From a virus, in IMG/VR virus record IMGVR_UViG_3300027896_000014, positions 81,244 through 145,243 of that record: a stretch of DNA of 64,000 bases; one strand, given 5' to 3'. The notes beneath the pieces are model-generated. The model was not told the DNA's origin, ran no database searches, and worked only from the letters and a program-made list of their open reading frames with translations. The position numbers and the translations under genes are program-made. Positions 23,985-64,000 of the stretch are shown here, piece after piece; position 1 is the stretch's first letter; every line of letters begins with the position of its first letter.

Positions 23985-24063
23985 TGGTAGCGGGGGTTAG
24001 ATTTGAACTAACGAATTTTCTGGGTATGAGCCAGACGCCCTAACCAGACTGGGCCACCCCGCA
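23985..24063 (-). tRNA. tRNA-Met(CAU), initiator-like, CCA encoded
   Basis: Full cloverleaf; U1xU72 mismatch, anticodon arm TCTGG-CTCATAC-CCAGA, T-loop TTCAAAT, 3' ACCA. Confidence 0.9.
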
Positions 24064-39366: not shown

Positions 39367-40977
39367 TCATCGTCTCCCTTGGCTTTTATGCAATCCGATA
39401 TTGACAGCGTAGGATTGAGCTAATTTTTGGGGCGGCGGCATATCCGCGGGCTTTGTACGCCTTTGCGTAACCATTGAACAATAAACGACCGCCTCACCTT
39501 TGTCGGGGGATCTTCCCAGCCTCCTCTTGAGTCCGGCAATCTTCACCCCATCAGCCCCGATCTTATCCTCTTTTGACTCGATCAGAATCCCCCCAGGAGT
39601 CAACATCCAGAGTGGAGCACATAGATCAGCTTTCAGTTCAGGGTCTGAAGGTAGAGCCACTTTGTCACCCATCAAAGGGTCCAAACTCTCCCGAAATCTC
39701 CACCACATATAGGACCGCATATTACGGAAACGATACTTCTGGGTGGCCTTGTCGGTCTTTCCCTCGAGTCCCTTTGTCCCGCCAGAATCTATTGCAATTA
39801 CTTGTACTTTAACGTTTGTCTTTAGAAAGTCTACCACGGCTCCGCCTACTCCAATTCCATCAACATGGATCGGTGCCCCATCACGCATAGCTTCAATAAC
39901 CTTACCGGCCGCTGATTGGCCATCGGGCGTCTGTACTCCGGGATAGCAGATTAAAGGAGAGTACCAAGTGCCATATCTCGTGGAGATCACGGTTCGGTCA
40001 GTCCCACCTCGAGCCACATCAACCCCTATAGAATCCATGGCCCCCTTCTTCCCATCCTCTTTCCAGCGAGCCTGGGCTGCCTCAACCCATAATGTGGGGA
40101 TGACCTGCCACTCTGAGTCTTTAATACCGGCCTGAAAGTTCCCCTCACGCATTTGGGAACGGAGGGGCTCAGGAGATGCATTGAGCACCACTTCATAGTT
40201 CGTGCCCAGCAAGAAAGGATTATCTTCTAACTTTGAGGGGATAAAGGTTCGAGACATCGGCTTAACCATGACGCCTTTGACCCGGATCGGATTCCCACTT
40301 GGAAGCTCTACGTCCTTCCCATCGATGGTGGTATACCAACGGAGCTCGCCAGGTTTGGCAGGGTGTGGATGCTTTGAATCGATCCAGGGACCCCAAAACT
40401 GGATAACCCACCTTCCTTGTTCGTCCACAGGAGGGTTACCCGTACAAACGATTCGGCAGCGTTGGCCCTGGACGGTTGTTCTAAGCCAAAGGGAAAGGAA
40501 GCGGAACTGATGCTCAATGAAGTTACAAATTTCGTCAAAGCCGAGGAAGTCATGAGGGCGCCCTTGCCATCGTGTCTCATCACCAGGGTCCTTACAGCTA
40601 CCAAATTCTATCTGCCGGTCCGGAAGTCTCCAGATCAGTTGCTGAGAATTCCAACCATCCCGGGTGGCCAAGATCTCTGCCAATCGATCAACCAGTGCCA
40701 CCGTCTGCGTTGCCTCACGCCTAAAGATAATCGACCGCCTATGTTCGGTGAGGCTAAGGCCAAGAAGAAGATCGCTCTTGGACCCGCCGGCAGCTCCCCC
40801 AAAGAATAGGATATCTGCGGGGTTCTCCAGAGCATCCATCTGCGTCCCAGGAATCGGCGTCCACAATGGATGCTTCAGGCTTACCAAAACCTCCCGTTGC
40901 AGATCCTGGAGTTCGTCGGAATTCAACCGCTCTAAAATATGCGAGAGTTCAATTATTTGTTTGGCTGAGGATTGCAA
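39367..40977 (-). CDS. terL: Terminase large subunit
   Basis: Walker A GGAAGGSKS, Walker B FLGFDE, TGNP coupling motif, nuclease GVDVARGG.D and SPD. Confidence 0.95.
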   Translation of the reverse strand: MQSSAKQIIELSHILERLNSDELQDLQREVLVSLKHPLWTPIPGTQMDALENPADILFFGGAAGGSKSDLLLGLSLTEHRRSIIFRREATQTVALVDRLAEILATRDGWNSQQLIWRLPDRQIEFGSCKDPGDETRWQGRPHDFLGFDEICNFIEHQFRFLSLWLRTTVQGQRCRIVCTGNPPVDEQGRWVIQFWGPWIDSKHPHPAKPGELRWYTTIDGKDVELPSGNPIRVKGVMVKPMSRTFIPSKLEDNPFLLGTNYEVVLNASPEPLRSQMREGNFQAGIKDSEWQVIPTLWVEAAQARWKEDGKKGAMDSIGVDVARGGTDRTVISTRYGTWYSPLICYPGVQTPDGQSAAGKVIEAMRDGAPIHVDGIGVGGAVVDFLKTNVKVQVIAIDSGGTKGLEGKTDKATQKYRFRNMRSYMWWRFRESLDPLMGDKVALPSDPELKADLCAPLWMLTPGGILIESKEDKIGADGVKIAGLKRRLGRSPDKGEAVVYCSMVTQRRTKPADMPPPQKLAQSYAVNIGLHKSQGRR

Positions 40978-51211: not shown

Positions 51212-52924
51212 TCAATTCTTCAGGAATAAGGCCTCTCCAGCTTTAACCTTACCATCTCTGGTTTCTGCCAGTCCGTTGCGCCGGAGAGTTCCCAAATAGG
51301 CCCCGAATGTTCCTGAATTCGCTGTAAGCTCTGCATGTTCGGCCAATTCCTCTTTGGGTATCGAGTCGGGATATGCTTCAACCAATATGTCAAGGAGCTT
51401 CCTTTCCCCAGCCCTTAAAGAGTTTCTCCACATATCGATTATTTCGTCAGTCGTTTGAGGAACGGATTTAATCCCTCCATGAACGTAAAGGCCAAGCTCT
51501 GAAACTTGAATCCCATTATGGCCTTCGTCAATAAGATTGGCTCTTTTGAGCGTCCCGTAATAAGCCGAAAAGGTTCCACTGGTAACTCTTAACCTTGAAA
51601 GAGTGGCAAGCTGGGCCTTTGTCAATCGGGCAGGATACCATCGGCACAAAACATCCAGCATCCTACGCTCCCCAAGGCGTAGAGTTTGAGGAGTATCGTC
51701 TTCTTTCACAATCCGTTTATCAAGAATTGGGTTAGTTCTTGGCTCAATCTTTGGCATAGGTTTCGGAGTTAACGTGGAGTATTTCTTAATGGCTTCCGTT
51801 ATTTCGATACCTTGCTTTGCCATCCGATCTACTGGAGCCTCAAGCTGATCACTGATCTTCCTGAGTCTCTCTACAAGTATTTCCAATCTCTCTATCTGAC
51901 TATCTTTAAGGATTGGTACTTCTTTGGTTTTGGTCTCAACGGTTTTAATCGGCATGGGTGTGTTTCGCAACTGTTTTTCAAGTTCCGAAATCTTCTTTCG
52001 GAGTTCCCGGGGATCCTCCTGCTTAACTCTTTCGATCGTGGCCGCAATTCGACCTTTCAACTTCTCAAGATCGACTTCTGCAAGGGATTTCGGAGCAGAC
52101 ACTTTCTCCCCAACTTTCGGAGTGGCACTGCTATCAAACGTCTCTCTGAGTCGAATCGTTACTCGCTTAAAGATATTTCTTGCCGGTGCCCATACCCACT
52201 TCTCTTTTGTGGACAAGGAGGCAAGGGATTCCCAAAAGGCTTCCTTCTGGTGTTCCGTGCCATGGGCATCAATCCAGGCCTGGACCGCCTTACGATCCTG
52301 GGGAGAGATCATCCGACCAACAATCAGGGTAGATGCCTGCGTCAAAATATTTTTATTCAGGGTAGCTGGCCTCTGTGTCACCATCGTAATGCCAATCCCT
52401 CTTGCTCTACCCCGACGTACCAAAACTTCCATGGCTCTCAGCGTTCGAGCCTCTTCCCTGAATGGGCGTTGCGGGGCCCATTCGTCCGCCTCATCTATAA
52501 ATAAATGCATGGCATTTCGGTTCATTTGGAAGAGCCGTGCAAGAAAATCCAGAACAAACCGGGAGGCTTCGCCTTTTGTGAATTCTGAGATATCCAAGAC
52601 CGCCGGCTGCCGTTCACCTACTATCCAGTCCGCAATGACCTTCCCGGCCATTGACTCGAGAGGGACATCTCCGTGAGCTCCACCCAGGATCACAATAGGC
52701 AGGCCTGGCGATTTACCGTCTATTGAGGAACGCAAGCCCCAACACACTCCCATGGTGTCTATGACGACCGCAGGAAGGTTGCGTTTCACCATTTCCTCAA
52801 CCAATGTAAGGAAGGCATAAGTTTTCCCAGATCCCTTTATTGCCAATATCCCAATGGTATCAGTCACTATGTCTAAGGGAAGTGCCAAACTATCCGATAT
52901 CCGAAGCTCGTTTCCTTTTTCCAT
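51212..52924 (-). CDS. HerA/FtsK-like ATPase (DUF87) with two C-terminal winged helices
   Basis: A.KGSGKT, VVID..G, FIDEADE, RGRARGIG....TQRPA. Confidence 0.85.
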   Translation of the reverse strand: MEKGNELRISDSLALPLDIVTDTIGILAIKGSGKTYAFLTLVEEMVKRNLPAVVIDTMGVCWGLRSSIDGKSPGLPIVILGGAHGDVPLESMAGKVIADWIVGERQPAVLDISEFTKGEASRFVLDFLARLFQMNRNAMHLFIDEADEWAPQRPFREEARTLRAMEVLVRRGRARGIGITMVTQRPATLNKNILTQASTLIVGRMISPQDRKAVQAWIDAHGTEHQKEAFWESLASLSTKEKWVWAPARNIFKRVTIRLRETFDSSATPKVGEKVSAPKSLAEVDLEKLKGRIAATIERVKQEDPRELRKKISELEKQLRNTPMPIKTVETKTKEVPILKDSQIERLEILVERLRKISDQLEAPVDRMAKQGIEITEAIKKYSTLTPKPMPKIEPRTNPILDKRIVKEDDTPQTLRLGERRMLDVLCRWYPARLTKAQLATLSRLRVTSGTFSAYYGTLKRANLIDEGHNGIQVSELGLYVHGGIKSVPQTTDEIIDMWRNSLRAGERKLLDILVEAYPDSIPKEELAEHAELTANSGTFGAYLGTLRRNGLAETRDGKVKAGEALFLKN

Positions 52925-60113: not shown

Positions 60114-60617
60114 TTATGTCTTCTCTGTTTTAGCGTAATATCCCCACTTTAATTTCATCCCTAATCGAAGGCCATATTTAGCGAGCCCTCCCTCTAATTC
60201 AGTGAGTGATTTTTTGCCAAAATTACGGATGTCCAAAATTTCCCTGCGTGTCTTCTGCACCACTTCGCCAAGCGTTCTTAGATTCTGGTTTCGCAAGGCA
60301 CTGGCCGATCTTACGGTTAATTCAATGTCCCAGACAGGAGTATCGTAGAGTACCTTATCGATTTGATCGTAGACTTCACCTCGATTGGTATCATCAATTT
60401 GAGGATAACGATTCTTGATATAAGAGATCTTCTCAAGAAACTCTTTAATAAAAGCCTGTTTTTTTTCCTTGTCTTTAAATAACCAAAGTGCTTTTGCTTC
60501 GATCTGCCGTATCCTTTCGAAGGATAGCCCGATCATCGCCGATATCTCCCGTAGCGTTTTCCCCTTCTCTCGTTGTTCCAAAATAAATGTGGCTCTAACC
60601 AAATCAAATGTTTTCAC
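60114..60617 (-). CDS. sigma70 region-4 HTH fused to RNAP alpha-CTD
   Basis: TLREI....GLS.ERIRQIE.KAL plus LTVRS..AL......LGE......EIL.IRNFGKKSL.E....L...GL.LGM. Confidence 0.85.
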   Translation of the reverse strand: MKTFDLVRATFILEQREKGKTLREISAMIGLSFERIRQIEAKALWLFKDKEKKQAFIKEFLEKISYIKNRYPQIDDTNRGEVYDQIDKVLYDTPVWDIELTVRSASALRNQNLRTLGEVVQKTRREILDIRNFGKKSLTELEGGLAKYGLRLGMKLKWGYYAKTEKT

Positions 60618-60824
60618 CTCCGTGCTCCCCTCCTTTTCATTGGCGGGAACCCCCCGGTTATTTTTTCCCCTCCATGATCAATTCTCACGGGTTGACCTCA
60701 TTCCTCTCTTTTAATCTTATAACTACCATCTTCCTGTTTTTCCCAAGACAGAACAACCTGGTAGTGGGTCAGTTTGAAAATATTCTCTCTTGCAATGCTT
60801 AACCAGTCATGCTACGTTTAGGGC

Positions 60825-61064
60825 ATGATCAAGAAGAAAAGAAACCCCTCTGACATAAGTGTACTTGCTTATCAGATCGTAAAAGACGCCACCGAAGAAG
60901 TCAAAGAAGAAATCCCGATCAAAGAAAAAAACCCTGCTGCTGTTGCTCTTGGTCGCCTTGGAGGGTTAAAGGGTGGGAAAGCAAGGGCGGAAAAGCTTTC
61001 CAAAAAAGAACTTCGAGAATGGGGTCGAAAAGCTGCAAAAGCTCGATGGTCTAAAAAATCATAG
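60825..61064 (+). CDS. Small basic protein (KNPAAV.LGR.GGLKGG type)
   Basis: Motif typical of companions of IS1-like transposases; leaderless after TTGCAA-17-TACGTT. Confidence 0.8.
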   Translation: MIKKKRNPSDISVLAYQIVKDATEEVKEEIPIKEKNPAAVALGRLGGLKGGKARAEKLSKKELREWGRKAAKARWSKKS

Positions 61065-61424
61065 TTTTATATCGACCTAAGGGTTATTCCTTCCCAATTA
61101 GAGTTCTAATTTGTCCCGCATTTAAATAATGGAATGTTCGCCAATGTCCTAATCTGAGTTCAAATTAGGACATTACTTATTTCTCTATATTAAGCATCCG
61201 TTATTTAGAGATACAAACAAATTGAAAAATATGATTATCTAAGTCGTTAATCATAAGTATCTAATAATATTAAATAATACCACATTCAATAAACCACATG
61301 AAGTTATGCGTATGACGGTTGAAGGCCAAGTCTAAAATATTCCTTGACATTTGAATATCTATTGTGCCAAAATAGAGTTAAGTGTAATAAGTAATAAGAA
61401 TCCACGTAAAAGGAGGGGCTGAGG

Positions 61425-61973
61425 ATGAGCCAAAAAGATAGACTCTTTGTAGATGCAATTAAAAAGATTGAAGACGATATAGGTGAATTGATTCAAGAGG
61501 TAAATAAAAAAAAGCGGGCAATCAATGCGATTTATGAAACCTTAGGGGAAAAAGCGCCATATGAGATTGAAGGGGAACCGAAGAGTTTTCAATTTAAACG
61601 GTCTCAGTTTTATGGTAAAAACTTTGCAACTGCTGTTCAAGAATTTTTGAAAATTAAGGGAGATGCGTGCACGTCAGAGGAAATTTATAATGGCCTTAGT
61701 GAAGGTGCTTTTGATTTCCCTTGGAAACCAAAAGATCGTCTTCGTATGGTTGCCATCTCACTTTCGACAAATCCGGCAGTGTTTCATAAGTTACCTAATA
61801 ACACATTTGGATTATCGGCTTGGTATTCAGAAATGCACCCAATACGGAAGAGAACCACAAAAGCAAGGAGGAAAAGAATTTCAAAAAATGAAGATCAATT
61901 GAAGGAAAAAGGATCGCCTAAACATATAAAGACAAATCCTGAAGATAGTGAAGTGAAAGGAGGGGATGTATGA
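61425..61973 (+). CDS. Coiled-coil plus winged-helix (HARE-HTH-like) regulator
   Basis: A...FL...G......EI...L..G...L..N...F..L....FGL..WY; RBS AGGAGG. Confidence 0.65.
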   Translation: MSQKDRLFVDAIKKIEDDIGELIQEVNKKKRAINAIYETLGEKAPYEIEGEPKSFQFKRSQFYGKNFATAVQEFLKIKGDACTSEEIYNGLSEGAFDFPWKPKDRLRMVAISLSTNPAVFHKLPNNTFGLSAWYSEMHPIRKRTTKARRKRISKNEDQLKEKGSPKHIKTNPEDSEVKGGDV

Positions 61974-62112
61974 TGCCACCAAAATCCAGCGCCGCAGCAA
62001 AAATTGCTGAGGGGCGGCGCTAAAACATAAATAAAAAAATGAGGGGAAGCATTCTGCTTGCGAGGCTCTATGCTTCTCCCTCATCCCCAAAAATTTATTT
62101 GGGATATATGAT

Positions 62113-62185
62113 GCCCCTGTAGCTAAAAGGATATAGCAAATGGTTGCTACCCATTTTGTTCCCGGTTCAAGCCCGGGCAGGGGCA
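62113..62185 (+). tRNA. tRNA with GCU (Ser) anticodon but class-I, Arg-like body
   Basis: All four stems perfectly paired; 5-nt variable loop; no encoded CCA. Confidence 0.85.
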
Positions 62186-62280
62186 CACCTATTTACAAAT
62201 GGCACAGATAAACTTTTTTGTCAAGCAAATAATGCTTAACCGGTCACGCAAGTTTTTCTTTTCACAATCTAAAATAATGC

Positions 62281-62309
62281 TTGACAATGCTTATGCGGAC
62301 AAGTATAAT
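62281..62309 (+). promoter_or_regulatory. Perfect sigma70 promoter for a leaderless transposase mRNA
   Basis: TTGACA-17-TATAAT, ATG 6 nt after the -10 box. Confidence 0.8.
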
Positions 62310-62315
62310 GTCATT

Positions 62316-63143
62316 ATGAATAAGCTGACGAAAGAGAAACAGAGGCAAGTGGTGGCAGCACTCGTCGAGGGTACTTCGATCCGGGCAACATGCCGAATGA
62401 CGGGCGTTGCTAAGAATACGGTCGTTAAGCTCTTGGTGGATCTCGGTAAAGCTTGTGCAGAATATCAAGATAAAGCTTTCCAAAATCTTACCTGTAGTCG
62501 TATCCAGGTCGATGAAATTTGGGCCTTCTGCTATGCCAAAGAAAAGAATGTACCAGAAGACAAAAAAGGTCAGTTTGGATATGGCGATGTTTGGACTTTT
62601 ACGGCGTTGGACGCTGAAACTAAGTTGGTTCCCGTTTTCTCCATCGGAAGACGTGATCTTGAATGTGCCACTGACTTTATGAAAGATTTAGCAAGTCGTC
62701 TTAAAAACCGCATCCAATTAACTACGGATGGGCATAAGATGTATTTAGAGGCTGTAGAAGAAGCTTTCGGTTCTGAAATTGATTTTAGTCAGCTTGTCAA
62801 AATATATGGGAATAGCGAAGAGAGTCAGAAACGATATAGTCCCGCTCAATGTATTGGTATAGAAAAAATAAAGATTAACGGCACCCCTAAAGATGAAAGT
62901 ATCTCAACAAGCTATGTAGAGAGGCAAAACTTAACAATGCGGATGAATATGAGAAGATTTACAAGACTGACAAATGGATTTTCAAAAAAGGTTGAAAATC
63001 TTTACTATGCGGAAGCCTTGTATTTCATGTATTATAATTTCTGTAGGATTCATCAGACCCTAAGAGTAACCCCGGCAATGGCAGCAAAAGTAACGGATCG
63101 GCTTTGGGACATTAAGGATATTATTGCTTTGTTAAAAGGATAA
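62316..63143 (+). CDS. IS1-family DDE transposase (single ORF, HTH plus DDE)
   Basis: EG.SIRA..R.TGV..NTV; IQVDEIW; TTDG...Y; STSYVERQNLTMR...RR..R.T..FSKK. Confidence 0.92.
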   Translation: MNKLTKEKQRQVVAALVEGTSIRATCRMTGVAKNTVVKLLVDLGKACAEYQDKAFQNLTCSRIQVDEIWAFCYAKEKNVPEDKKGQFGYGDVWTFTALDAETKLVPVFSIGRRDLECATDFMKDLASRLKNRIQLTTDGHKMYLEAVEEAFGSEIDFSQLVKIYGNSEESQKRYSPAQCIGIEKIKINGTPKDESISTSYVERQNLTMRMNMRRFTRLTNGFSKKVENLYYAEALYFMYYNFCRIHQTLRVTPAMAAKVTDRLWDIKDIIALLKG

Positions 63144-63202
63144 ATTATGGTAGTGTGTATCGATTTGAAATTTAGAAGAGATAGCAGTATGCTTATTGTC
63201 TT

Positions 63203-63730
63203 TTATATTTGGATTGGTTCCTCGTAGTCCTTTATCTTTGACAATGATTCATAGTAAGTAGTATCTAACCACTTTAGAAGCAAACTAATATATTCTGTGC
63301 AAAGTTTAGACTCCGTGCAGGGAACTTCAATTGTCAGACGAGTCCCTAAGGTGGTAAATAGCGAAGGGACTCGACCACTAAATAGTTGTTTTTCCTTATT
63401 CTCTAAGTCGCTTTCCTTGCTTAATTTTATAATGAGACCGTCGTATAAAACCGCTTTTTCTACTTCAATAAAATAGATAGTCTTATCTGTCGCTGGGCTT
63501 GCTGTAATCTTGGTCTTACCCAAATTCTTCAGGTTTCTTTCTACCGTGCCAGTCGCTACCCCAAAACGTATCTTGAGCAGGTCCCAAGCTTTATCCATAG
63601 TTGTTCCCATAGCTATAATTTTGTCCCGTATATCTGACAATTTGTCACTAACGTCTTTACGAAAGCCCGATAAACCAAAATATACAGCTACGGCTATTGC
63701 TAATAAACCTACAAATAGTCCCCACTCCAT
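63203..63730 (-). CDS. Membrane-anchored hypothetical passenger protein
   Basis: N-terminal TM helix and coiled segment; RBS GAGG. Confidence 0.7.
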   Translation of the reverse strand: MEWGLFVGLLAIAVAVYFGLSGFRKDVSDKLSDIRDKIIAMGTTMDKAWDLLKIRFGVATGTVERNLKNLGKTKITASPATDKTIYFIEVEKAVLYDGLIIKLSKESDLENKEKQLFSGRVPSLFTTLGTRLTIEVPCTESKLCTEYISLLLKWLDTTYYESLSKIKDYEEPIQI

Positions 63731-63822: not shown

Positions 63823-63963
63823 AGATTACTCCTTTTTATTAATTTGTCAAGATTTTTTAAACTGACCCACTACCAAATTCTCAACAGAGTTGACTGTTTA
63901 TCAATTTCTTATAAAATAAATATATTGTCCGGGGGCCAATGGAATGATAGAAAGGGGGCATCC

Positions 63964-64000
63964 GTGGAAGACCGAATTTTGATTGTAGATGATGAAGAAG
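63964..64000 (+). CDS. Response regulator receiver domain, partial (host gene)
   Basis: GTG start after AAAGGGGG; MEDRILIVDDEE. Confidence 0.75.
   Translation, partial: MEDRILIVDDEE

Follow-up and report, generated by a model that had tools for sequence, protein, structure and literature searches.

The DNA analysed here, a 64-kb stretch (the window) of an IMG/VR virus record of 145 kb, encodes terminase, portal and virion proteins on its minus strand. On the plus strand, at 62113-62185, lies a class-I tRNA gene with the anticodon GCU (G34, C35 and U36) and an arginine-type body, as characterised by its sequence, ARAGORN, Rfam and its fold. The acceptor stem of 7 bp (GCCCCTG/CAGGGGC) encloses a D arm (GCTA-AAAGGATA-TAGC), an anticodon arm (AATGG-TTGCTAC-CCATT), a variable loop of 5 nt (TTGTT) and a T arm (CCCGG-TTCAAGC-CCGGG) in a 7/5 layout; A73 is followed by CACC, and CCA is not encoded. 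The gene scored 63.5 bits with Rfam RF00005, whose gathering score is 29 (E 2e-11, model positions 1-71), and its minimum-free-energy fold was the full cloverleaf (-28.9 kcal/mol, z -2.3). All positions that shape the L were present (U8-A14, G18, G19, A21, A15-U48, G53-C61, T54, T55, C56 and A58). The intact cloverleaf of the original prediction was confirmed letter by letter, with agreement among ARAGORN, Rfam and the predicted fold, indicating that this is a real, intact tRNA gene.

ARAGORN labelled 62113-62186 as tRNA-Ser(gct). Bacterial SerRS needs a long variable arm, which is its main determinant, together with G73. The window tRNA lacks both of these class-II tRNA-Ser features, having a variable loop of 5 nt where a long arm exceeds 10 nt and A73 instead of G73, as the original prediction had stated. 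ArgRS recognises A20, C35, U or G at position 36 and a purine at position 73, and does not read position 34. The arginine elements that had been predicted, namely A20 (in the D loop, AAAGGATA), C35, U36 and A73, were all found and proved to be conserved across the family described below. The GCU anticodon itself pairs with AGC and AGU and not with any arginine codon (read by NCG or YCU). Since tRNA finders label such genes tRNA-Ser, annotation would be affected if they are charged and used as arginine tRNAs.

The tRNA gene sits inside an IS1-family cargo transposon of about 3.1 kb, bounded by a left terminal inverted repeat (GGTAGTGGGTCAGTTTGAA) at 60760-60778 on the plus strand and a right one (TTTAAACTGACCCACTACC; the minus strand reads GGTAGTGGGTCAGTTTAAA) at 63856-63874 on the minus strand. 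The same pair brackets transposase relatives in loci L002-L022 and L103-L107 and is present in most related loci, where the IS1-type ends read GGTAGTG(T/G)(C/G)TCAGTTTGAA and lie about 2.8-3.7 kb apart. The tRNA was therefore rightly predicted to be IS-borne, as it lies between terminal repeats that recur around transposase relatives. The flanks of the window element (AGAACAACCT at 60750-60759 and AAATTCTCA at 63875-63883) form no target-site duplication.

The left end is followed on the plus strand by a conserved core gene for a small basic protein of 79 aa (60825-61064), which has homologues in 99 related loci; it matched no Pfam or NCBIfam family, and its Atlas neighbours are auto-named 'histone H1 family protein'. 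After it come a degenerate internal copy of the right-end repeat (61159-61177, minus strand, 5 mismatches), a passenger ORF of 182 aa that belongs to no family (61425-61973, plus strand), and a strong hairpin, read from the sequence, between this ORF and the tRNA (62040-62083, plus strand). Downstream of the tRNA, a sigma-70-type consensus promoter for the transposase (TTGACA, 17 nt, TATAAT; 12/12 matches) occupies 62281-62309 on the plus strand and is overlapped by an operator-like near-palindrome, ATGCTT...AAGTA, at 62287-62305. The DDE transposase gene (62316-63143, plus strand) encodes 275 aa from the ATG at 62316. IS1 is its best family: Pfam DDE_Tnp_IS1 was matched at 24.7 bits against a threshold of 24.1, and the best NCBIfam match was NF033558 IS1 at 60.2 bits, under the curated cut-off of 100. 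Just past the transposase stop lies a degenerate internal copy of the left-end repeat (63149-63169, plus strand, read from the sequence), which together with the right end encloses a 0.7-kb insert; the insert contains an ORF of 175 aa (63203-63730, minus strand) with no family and no homologue among the related loci.

The internal end copies divide the element into three modules, namely the left end with the 79-aa gene, the cargo with the tRNA and the transposase, and the 0.7-kb insert; comparable internal copies were seen in L025, L107 and L123. A near-palindromic motif of the type ATGCTTGACCGGTCAAGCAT occurs after the left end (60795-60812), after the tRNA (62232-62249) and over the transposase promoter (62287-62305). 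The motif is kept in relatives and, from its sequence, resembles an operator for a regulator encoded by the element.

The element shares with the IS1 family its ends, which begin with GGTAGTG (GGTAATG/GGTGATG in IS1), a DDE transposase that best matches IS1 models, and passenger genes between the ends. It differs in a transposase score under the curated cut-off, the lack of a target duplication, a tRNA linked to the core and nested end copies. IS1-family insertion sequences with passenger genes include the single-ORF and ISMhu11-like groups of the ISfinder classification.

Only two tRNA genes are present in the record. The second, tRNA-Met(CAU), lies at 23985-24063 on the minus strand among phage structural genes (Rfam 59.3 bits). 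The window also contains two separate ORFs for the terminase large subunit, at 39367-40977 and 51212-52924, both on the minus strand, with matches to PHROG 979 at 1e-37 and PHROG 2666 at 7.5e-22. Just outside the element, an ORF of 167 aa (60114-60617, minus strand) encodes a fusion of sigma-70 region 4 and the RNA polymerase alpha C-terminal domain (Pfam scores of 29.7 and 57.6 bits), which is unusual for a phage gene. The element has phage genes on one side and, on the other, the beginning of a response-regulator gene (63964-64000) at the very end of the record, a position that may mark a prophage-host junction or a rearrangement.

Comparison with the nearest elements, found in Thermodesulfobacteriota MAGs and encoding transposases 78-90% identical to that of the window, showed that DNA homology begins 0-7 nt from the 5' end of the tRNA and continues through the transposase, while the DNA 5' of the tRNA differs between elements. 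Because homology starts at the tRNA, the gene is part of the core and not of the variable cargo, and the alignment places it in a conserved module of tRNA, promoter and transposase. A promoter scan found no consensus promoter directly 5' of the window tRNA, and the sequencing runs listed for the stretch included no RNA run. The family tRNAs are repeatedly preceded by weak -10-like motifs and a hairpin, and T runs directly follow many members.

The comparison covered 21 viral, 80 metagenomic and 79 genomic loci encoding transposase relatives and retained 160 of about 1100 matched transposase loci. A plus-strand tRNA was located 40-400 nt before the transposase ATG in 42 of the 166 loci with enough upstream DNA; no tRNA was present at this slot in 119 of 157 informative related elements. 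Two tRNA bodies share the slot. The class-I body, to which the window tRNA belongs, has an acceptor stem starting GCCCCYG, a GGAUA D loop and A73, and its distinct members carry the anticodons GCU (11, window included), ACU (6), CGA (1) and CGG (1); UCU or CCU was found in none of the 19. The class-II body is serine-like, with a long variable arm, G73 and a GGAG-type acceptor, is accepted as tRNA by Rfam, and carries UAU (9), UAG (6), CAA (2) or GUA (4). Examples lie at L025:2173-2263, L033:2227-2320, L031:1951-2043, L117:2337-2427 and L142:2126-2215, among others, and in L025/L106 tRNAs of both bodies stand in tandem, class II with UAU and class I with GCU. The transposase tree requires at least 28 changes of tRNA class and at least 5 between GCU and ACU. 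Carriers of the element include Thermodesulfobacteriota, Acidobacteriota, Nitrospirota, Aminicenantes and phage DNA. The finding is thus larger than the single gene of the original prediction: the window tRNA belongs to a family of arginine-type tRNAs that is conserved and mobile, has AGY anticodons and is linked to an IS1-family transposase module.

A BLAST search of phage records and E. coli genomes with the tRNA as query found no match, and viral contigs contained no instance of its exact pattern when the anticodon was left free. A pattern combining acceptor and anticodon loop gave 9 matches in 401 genomes of the nearest host's phylum, one of them a real tRNA (G208, ACU), with the reversed-pattern control matching about as often. 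Other tRNA genes were seen close to related elements. In the viral contig L012 (3864-3961), the right end of the element is separated by 2 nt from a host-type tRNA-Pro(CGG) gene that runs on the other strand. In L181 (3419-3597), 3' of the transposase, ARAGORN found a tRNA(gct) of 79 nt and, after it, one of 87 nt with the ochre-reading anticodon UUA.

The 19 class-I members from IS1-type elements were aligned over their full length. Double compensatory changes occurred in 14 of the 17 predicted stem pairs, with up to 5-8 pair types in the anticodon stem. Against these drifting stems, C35 (17/19), U36 (17/19), A37 (19/19), A20 (17/19) and A73 (16/19) were conserved, a combination that corresponds to the ArgRS identity set; the D-loop neighbours of A20 (positions 16, 17 and 20a) varied freely. 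The tertiary and elbow positions U8, G18, G19, T54, T55, C56, A58 and C61 were invariant or nearly so. Position 34 was G in 11 members, A in 6 and C in 2, the last being the CGA and CGG variants. The sequence of the acceptor stem was conserved, which is also the case for chromosomal tRNA-Arg(CCU) genes across unrelated phyla. The near-universal U33 was replaced by C33 in 4 of the 19 members (L104, L098, L134 and L165) and in the peat relative from runs X2, X5 and X8, which is unusual for a decoding tRNA. The anticodon loops of these members read CCGCUAA or CCACUAA, and the X2/X5/X8 contigs reach a loose end before the position of window 62157. Since GCU/ACU recurs and the stems covary, the tRNA appears to be selectively maintained, and the alignment argues that the window copy is a functional gene.

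Ten genomes from several phyla, all hosting related elements, were searched with a covariance model of the class-I family, termed R1. With the IS-borne copies set aside, the top chromosomal matches were tRNA-Arg in all ten genomes (69-83 bits). The highest scores were reached by the UCU (up to 83.5 bits), ACG (79.5) and CCU (76-77) isoacceptors, with UCG, CCG and GCG also ranked, and Trp, Ile, His and Met tRNAs scored below tRNA-Arg. The acceptor stem of the host tRNA-Arg(CCU), GCCCCTG, is identical to that of the window tRNA. E. coli argW scored 61 bits with R1 and has its D arm in common with the window tRNA, which bears out the predicted likeness to E. coli tRNA-Arg(CCU).

The window tRNA thus resembles the chromosomal tRNA-Arg(CCU)/(UCU) of E. 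coli (argW) and Thermodesulfobacteriota MAGs in the acceptor sequence GCCCCUG (host CCU), the GGAUA D loop with A20, C35, U36, A37, the purine at 73, the class-I size and the short variable loop. It differs from them in G34 (A in some relatives), which reads AGC/AGU and not AGG/AGA, in being carried by a transposon, in the lack of an encoded CCA and, in some family members, in C33. Taken together, these comparisons make derivation of the tRNA body from a bacterial tRNA-Arg of the CCU/UCU type the best explanation of its sequence.

The codons of the transposase were examined for traces of Ser-to-Arg decoding. AGY makes up 8 of the 13 Ser codons in the window transposase, and in tRNA-bearing elements it stands mainly at conserved Ser columns (23 Ser versus 6 Lys/Arg), which argues against wholesale recoding. 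Avoidance of AGY was not seen either, as it accounted for 46% of Ser codons in tRNA-bearing elements versus 44% in the others. With AGY not avoided and prevalent among the window serines, any Ser-to-Arg decoding must be weak or absent; efficient decoding of this kind would damage the element itself, and the element's own codon usage thus argues against strong mistranslation. For the class-II tRNAs, no ATA, CTA or TTG codons were found at conserved Ser columns of the transposase.

AGY at conserved Lys/Arg columns was found at 8 of 493 sites with the tRNA versus 10 of 4292 in the others (naive Fisher p 2e-4), and in 8 of 15 tRNA-bearing elements versus 10 of 142, with five of the eight cases falling in one column of one clade. 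The excess comes from about four independent events. An independent-pairs test on the transposase tree gave p about 1 with only 6 usable pairs, and the excess is a lead, not evidence. In the clearest case, transposase codon 61 (62496-62498), five residues before the catalytic Asp-Glu, the window has AGU where 121 of 165 sequences have Lys and 15 have Arg. AGU at this residue is common to the window, L103, L025/L106 and L107, all with GCU or ACU tRNAs; L079, with an ACU tRNA, has AGA. Five genomes with AGY at Lys/Arg columns and no adjacent odd tRNA contained no arginine-type GCU/ACU tRNA elsewhere.

From these observations and the established synthetase identity rules, the following course of events is proposed. 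The host arginyl-tRNA synthetase would charge the tRNA with arginine, reading A20, C35, U36 and the discriminator and not position 34; with the identity elements present, arginylation is to be expected, and decoding of AGY would follow from the purine at position 34, through which the anticodon would pair with AGC/AGU. On the ribosome, the charged tRNA would compete at a low level with the host class-II tRNA-Ser(GCU), so that arginine would now and then replace serine at AGY codons. Of the mechanisms considered, arginylation with subsequent low-level Ser-to-Arg decoding has the best support, and we give it a probability of about 0.45. A bolder form, in which IS1-family transposons spread a purpose-built AGY-to-arginine decoder coupled to their own activity, seems to us improbable. 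Under it, the transposase might be fully active only when the element's tRNA inserts arginine at Ser61, and the slots with arginine-type GCU/ACU and serine-type UAU/UAG/CAA tRNAs may be mobile carriers of codon reinterpretation.

A single base change at position 34 separates the window tRNA from tRNA-Arg(CCU/UCU), as would be seen if an ordinary arginine tRNA had suffered a sequencing or assembly error or a one-off mutation. The Logan contigs of run X1, however, have the same GCU letters at depth 216 without any variant, X1 being probably the source sample and this second assembly hence not fully independent. Homologues, moreover, keep GCU or ACU, and CCU or UCU did not appear: GCU/ACU was found in 17 aligned family members and in three further sightings. 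Peat, wetland and soil runs contain a relative of about 92% identity, and the diverged 5' half of its tRNA ends in a GCU anticodon loop. Decay to a pseudogene, already doubted in the original prediction, is contradicted by the compensatory changes in the family stems, and charging by SerRS as a genuine tRNA-Ser by the missing long variable arm and G73, given the established identity rule. Error, decay and a true tRNA-Ser are therefore essentially excluded. The tRNA might instead serve in conflict, either as a toxic mistranslator held in check by an RNA or protein antidote, or as a decoy for nucleases with which toxin-antitoxin or defence systems attack anticodons. Irregular tRNAs have been found close to toxin-antitoxin genes, and two variants were lethal to E. 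coli (Mukai et al, PMC5389517). At the window locus and in 19 relatives, however, flanks of up to 500 nt paired with the tRNA no better than shuffled sequences, and the reverse complement of the anticodon arm had no other copy in the 64-kb window with up to 3 mismatches; an antisense-RNA cassette is not part of the window locus or its IS1 clade. The passenger genes vary and include no recognisable toxin or nuclease family. The neighbouring 182-aa ORF was considered as a dedicated partner protein and rejected, since it occurs in only 3 other loci, none of them with a tRNA, and is thus variable cargo. A conflict device is less likely here than either decoding or a non-decoding role within the element, and we regard it as unlikely.

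The tRNA may also be made, and perhaps charged, and yet act outside decoding as a part of the element, as a structured terminator or insulator or an RNase P/Z processing site between passenger transcription and the tightly controlled transposase promoter, or as a regulatory RNA that the element senses; a regulatory RNA had also been offered in the original prediction. This alternative, which we hold possible but less probable than low-level decoding, would account for the fixed place of the gene 75-160 nt 5' of the transposase ATG in 42/166 loci, at the border of variable cargo and conserved core, and for the two unrelated tRNA bodies at the same slot. It is also in line with the T runs after many members and the hairpin before them, with C33 in some members, and with the finding of neither a recoding footprint nor AGY avoidance; the same suggestion was made for allo-tRNA(UAU) by Mukai et al (PMC5389517). 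A purely structural role leaves unexplained why C35, U36, A37, A20 and A73 stay fixed while the stems drift, why UCU and CCU are missing from the arginine body and why the full set of tertiary positions is kept, and 119 of 157 informative related elements do without a tRNA there. Low-level decoding of AGY as arginine hence remains our preferred reading.

Natural tRNAs with a mismatch between anticodon and identity are rare and known mainly from the allo-tRNAs and the tRNAProX/ProRSx pair. The present family adds a canonical-looking arginine tRNA with a serine anticodon that is apparently under purifying selection and spread by an insertion sequence across phyla. If it is charged and used, mobile elements would change the reading of sense codons locally, with consequences for the evolution of the genetic code; proteome stress could be a strategy of mobile elements, and code engineering would gain an AGY decoder of natural origin that ArgRS charges. 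Should the tRNA have no part in translation, it would show clearly that a transposon can recruit a tRNA fold as one of its parts.

In the full-text literature, no description of an IS-borne arginine-type GCU tRNA was found, the closest being the allo-tRNAs and tRNAProX. The allo-tRNAs with mismatched anticodons were reported from Acidobacteria and Proteobacteria living in soil and sediment (Mukai et al, 2017, Nucleic Acids Res, PMC5389517). Like the window tRNA, they are natural bacterial tRNAs whose anticodon is at odds with their identity, and some lie beside genes related to transposons or to toxin-antitoxin systems. Their variable arm is long, their acceptor and T stems follow an 8/4 or 9/3 layout, and their identity is Ser, Ala or Cys, whereas the window tRNA folds as a canonical class-I cloverleaf of the 7/5 type, has a variable loop of 5 nt and carries arginine identity elements. 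An arginine-type GCU tRNA is not described in that study, whose GCU species has U73 and an extra loop. The class-II tRNAs at the slot probably belong with its allo-tRNA(UAU) group, for which translation activity could not be shown with six amber-anticodon (CUA) variants and a non-translational role was suggested (PMC5389517). A 2024 review of mistranslating tRNAs (PMC11415595) covers tRNAProX, Sec/Cys hybrids and 'additional tRNAs with mismatched identities' and lists no arginine-type GCU tRNA. tRNAProX/ProRSx of Streptomyces and Kitasatospora, thought to cause deliberate mistranslation (PMC10404621; PMC11415595), resembles the present case in being a conserved tRNA with one identity and another anticodon. 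tRNAProX has its own synthetase paralogue, whereas no match to a synthetase family was found among the four ORFs of the window element, for which the host ArgRS should suffice. Unlike with tRNAProX, the substitution would be Ser to Arg, and the gene rides an insertion sequence.
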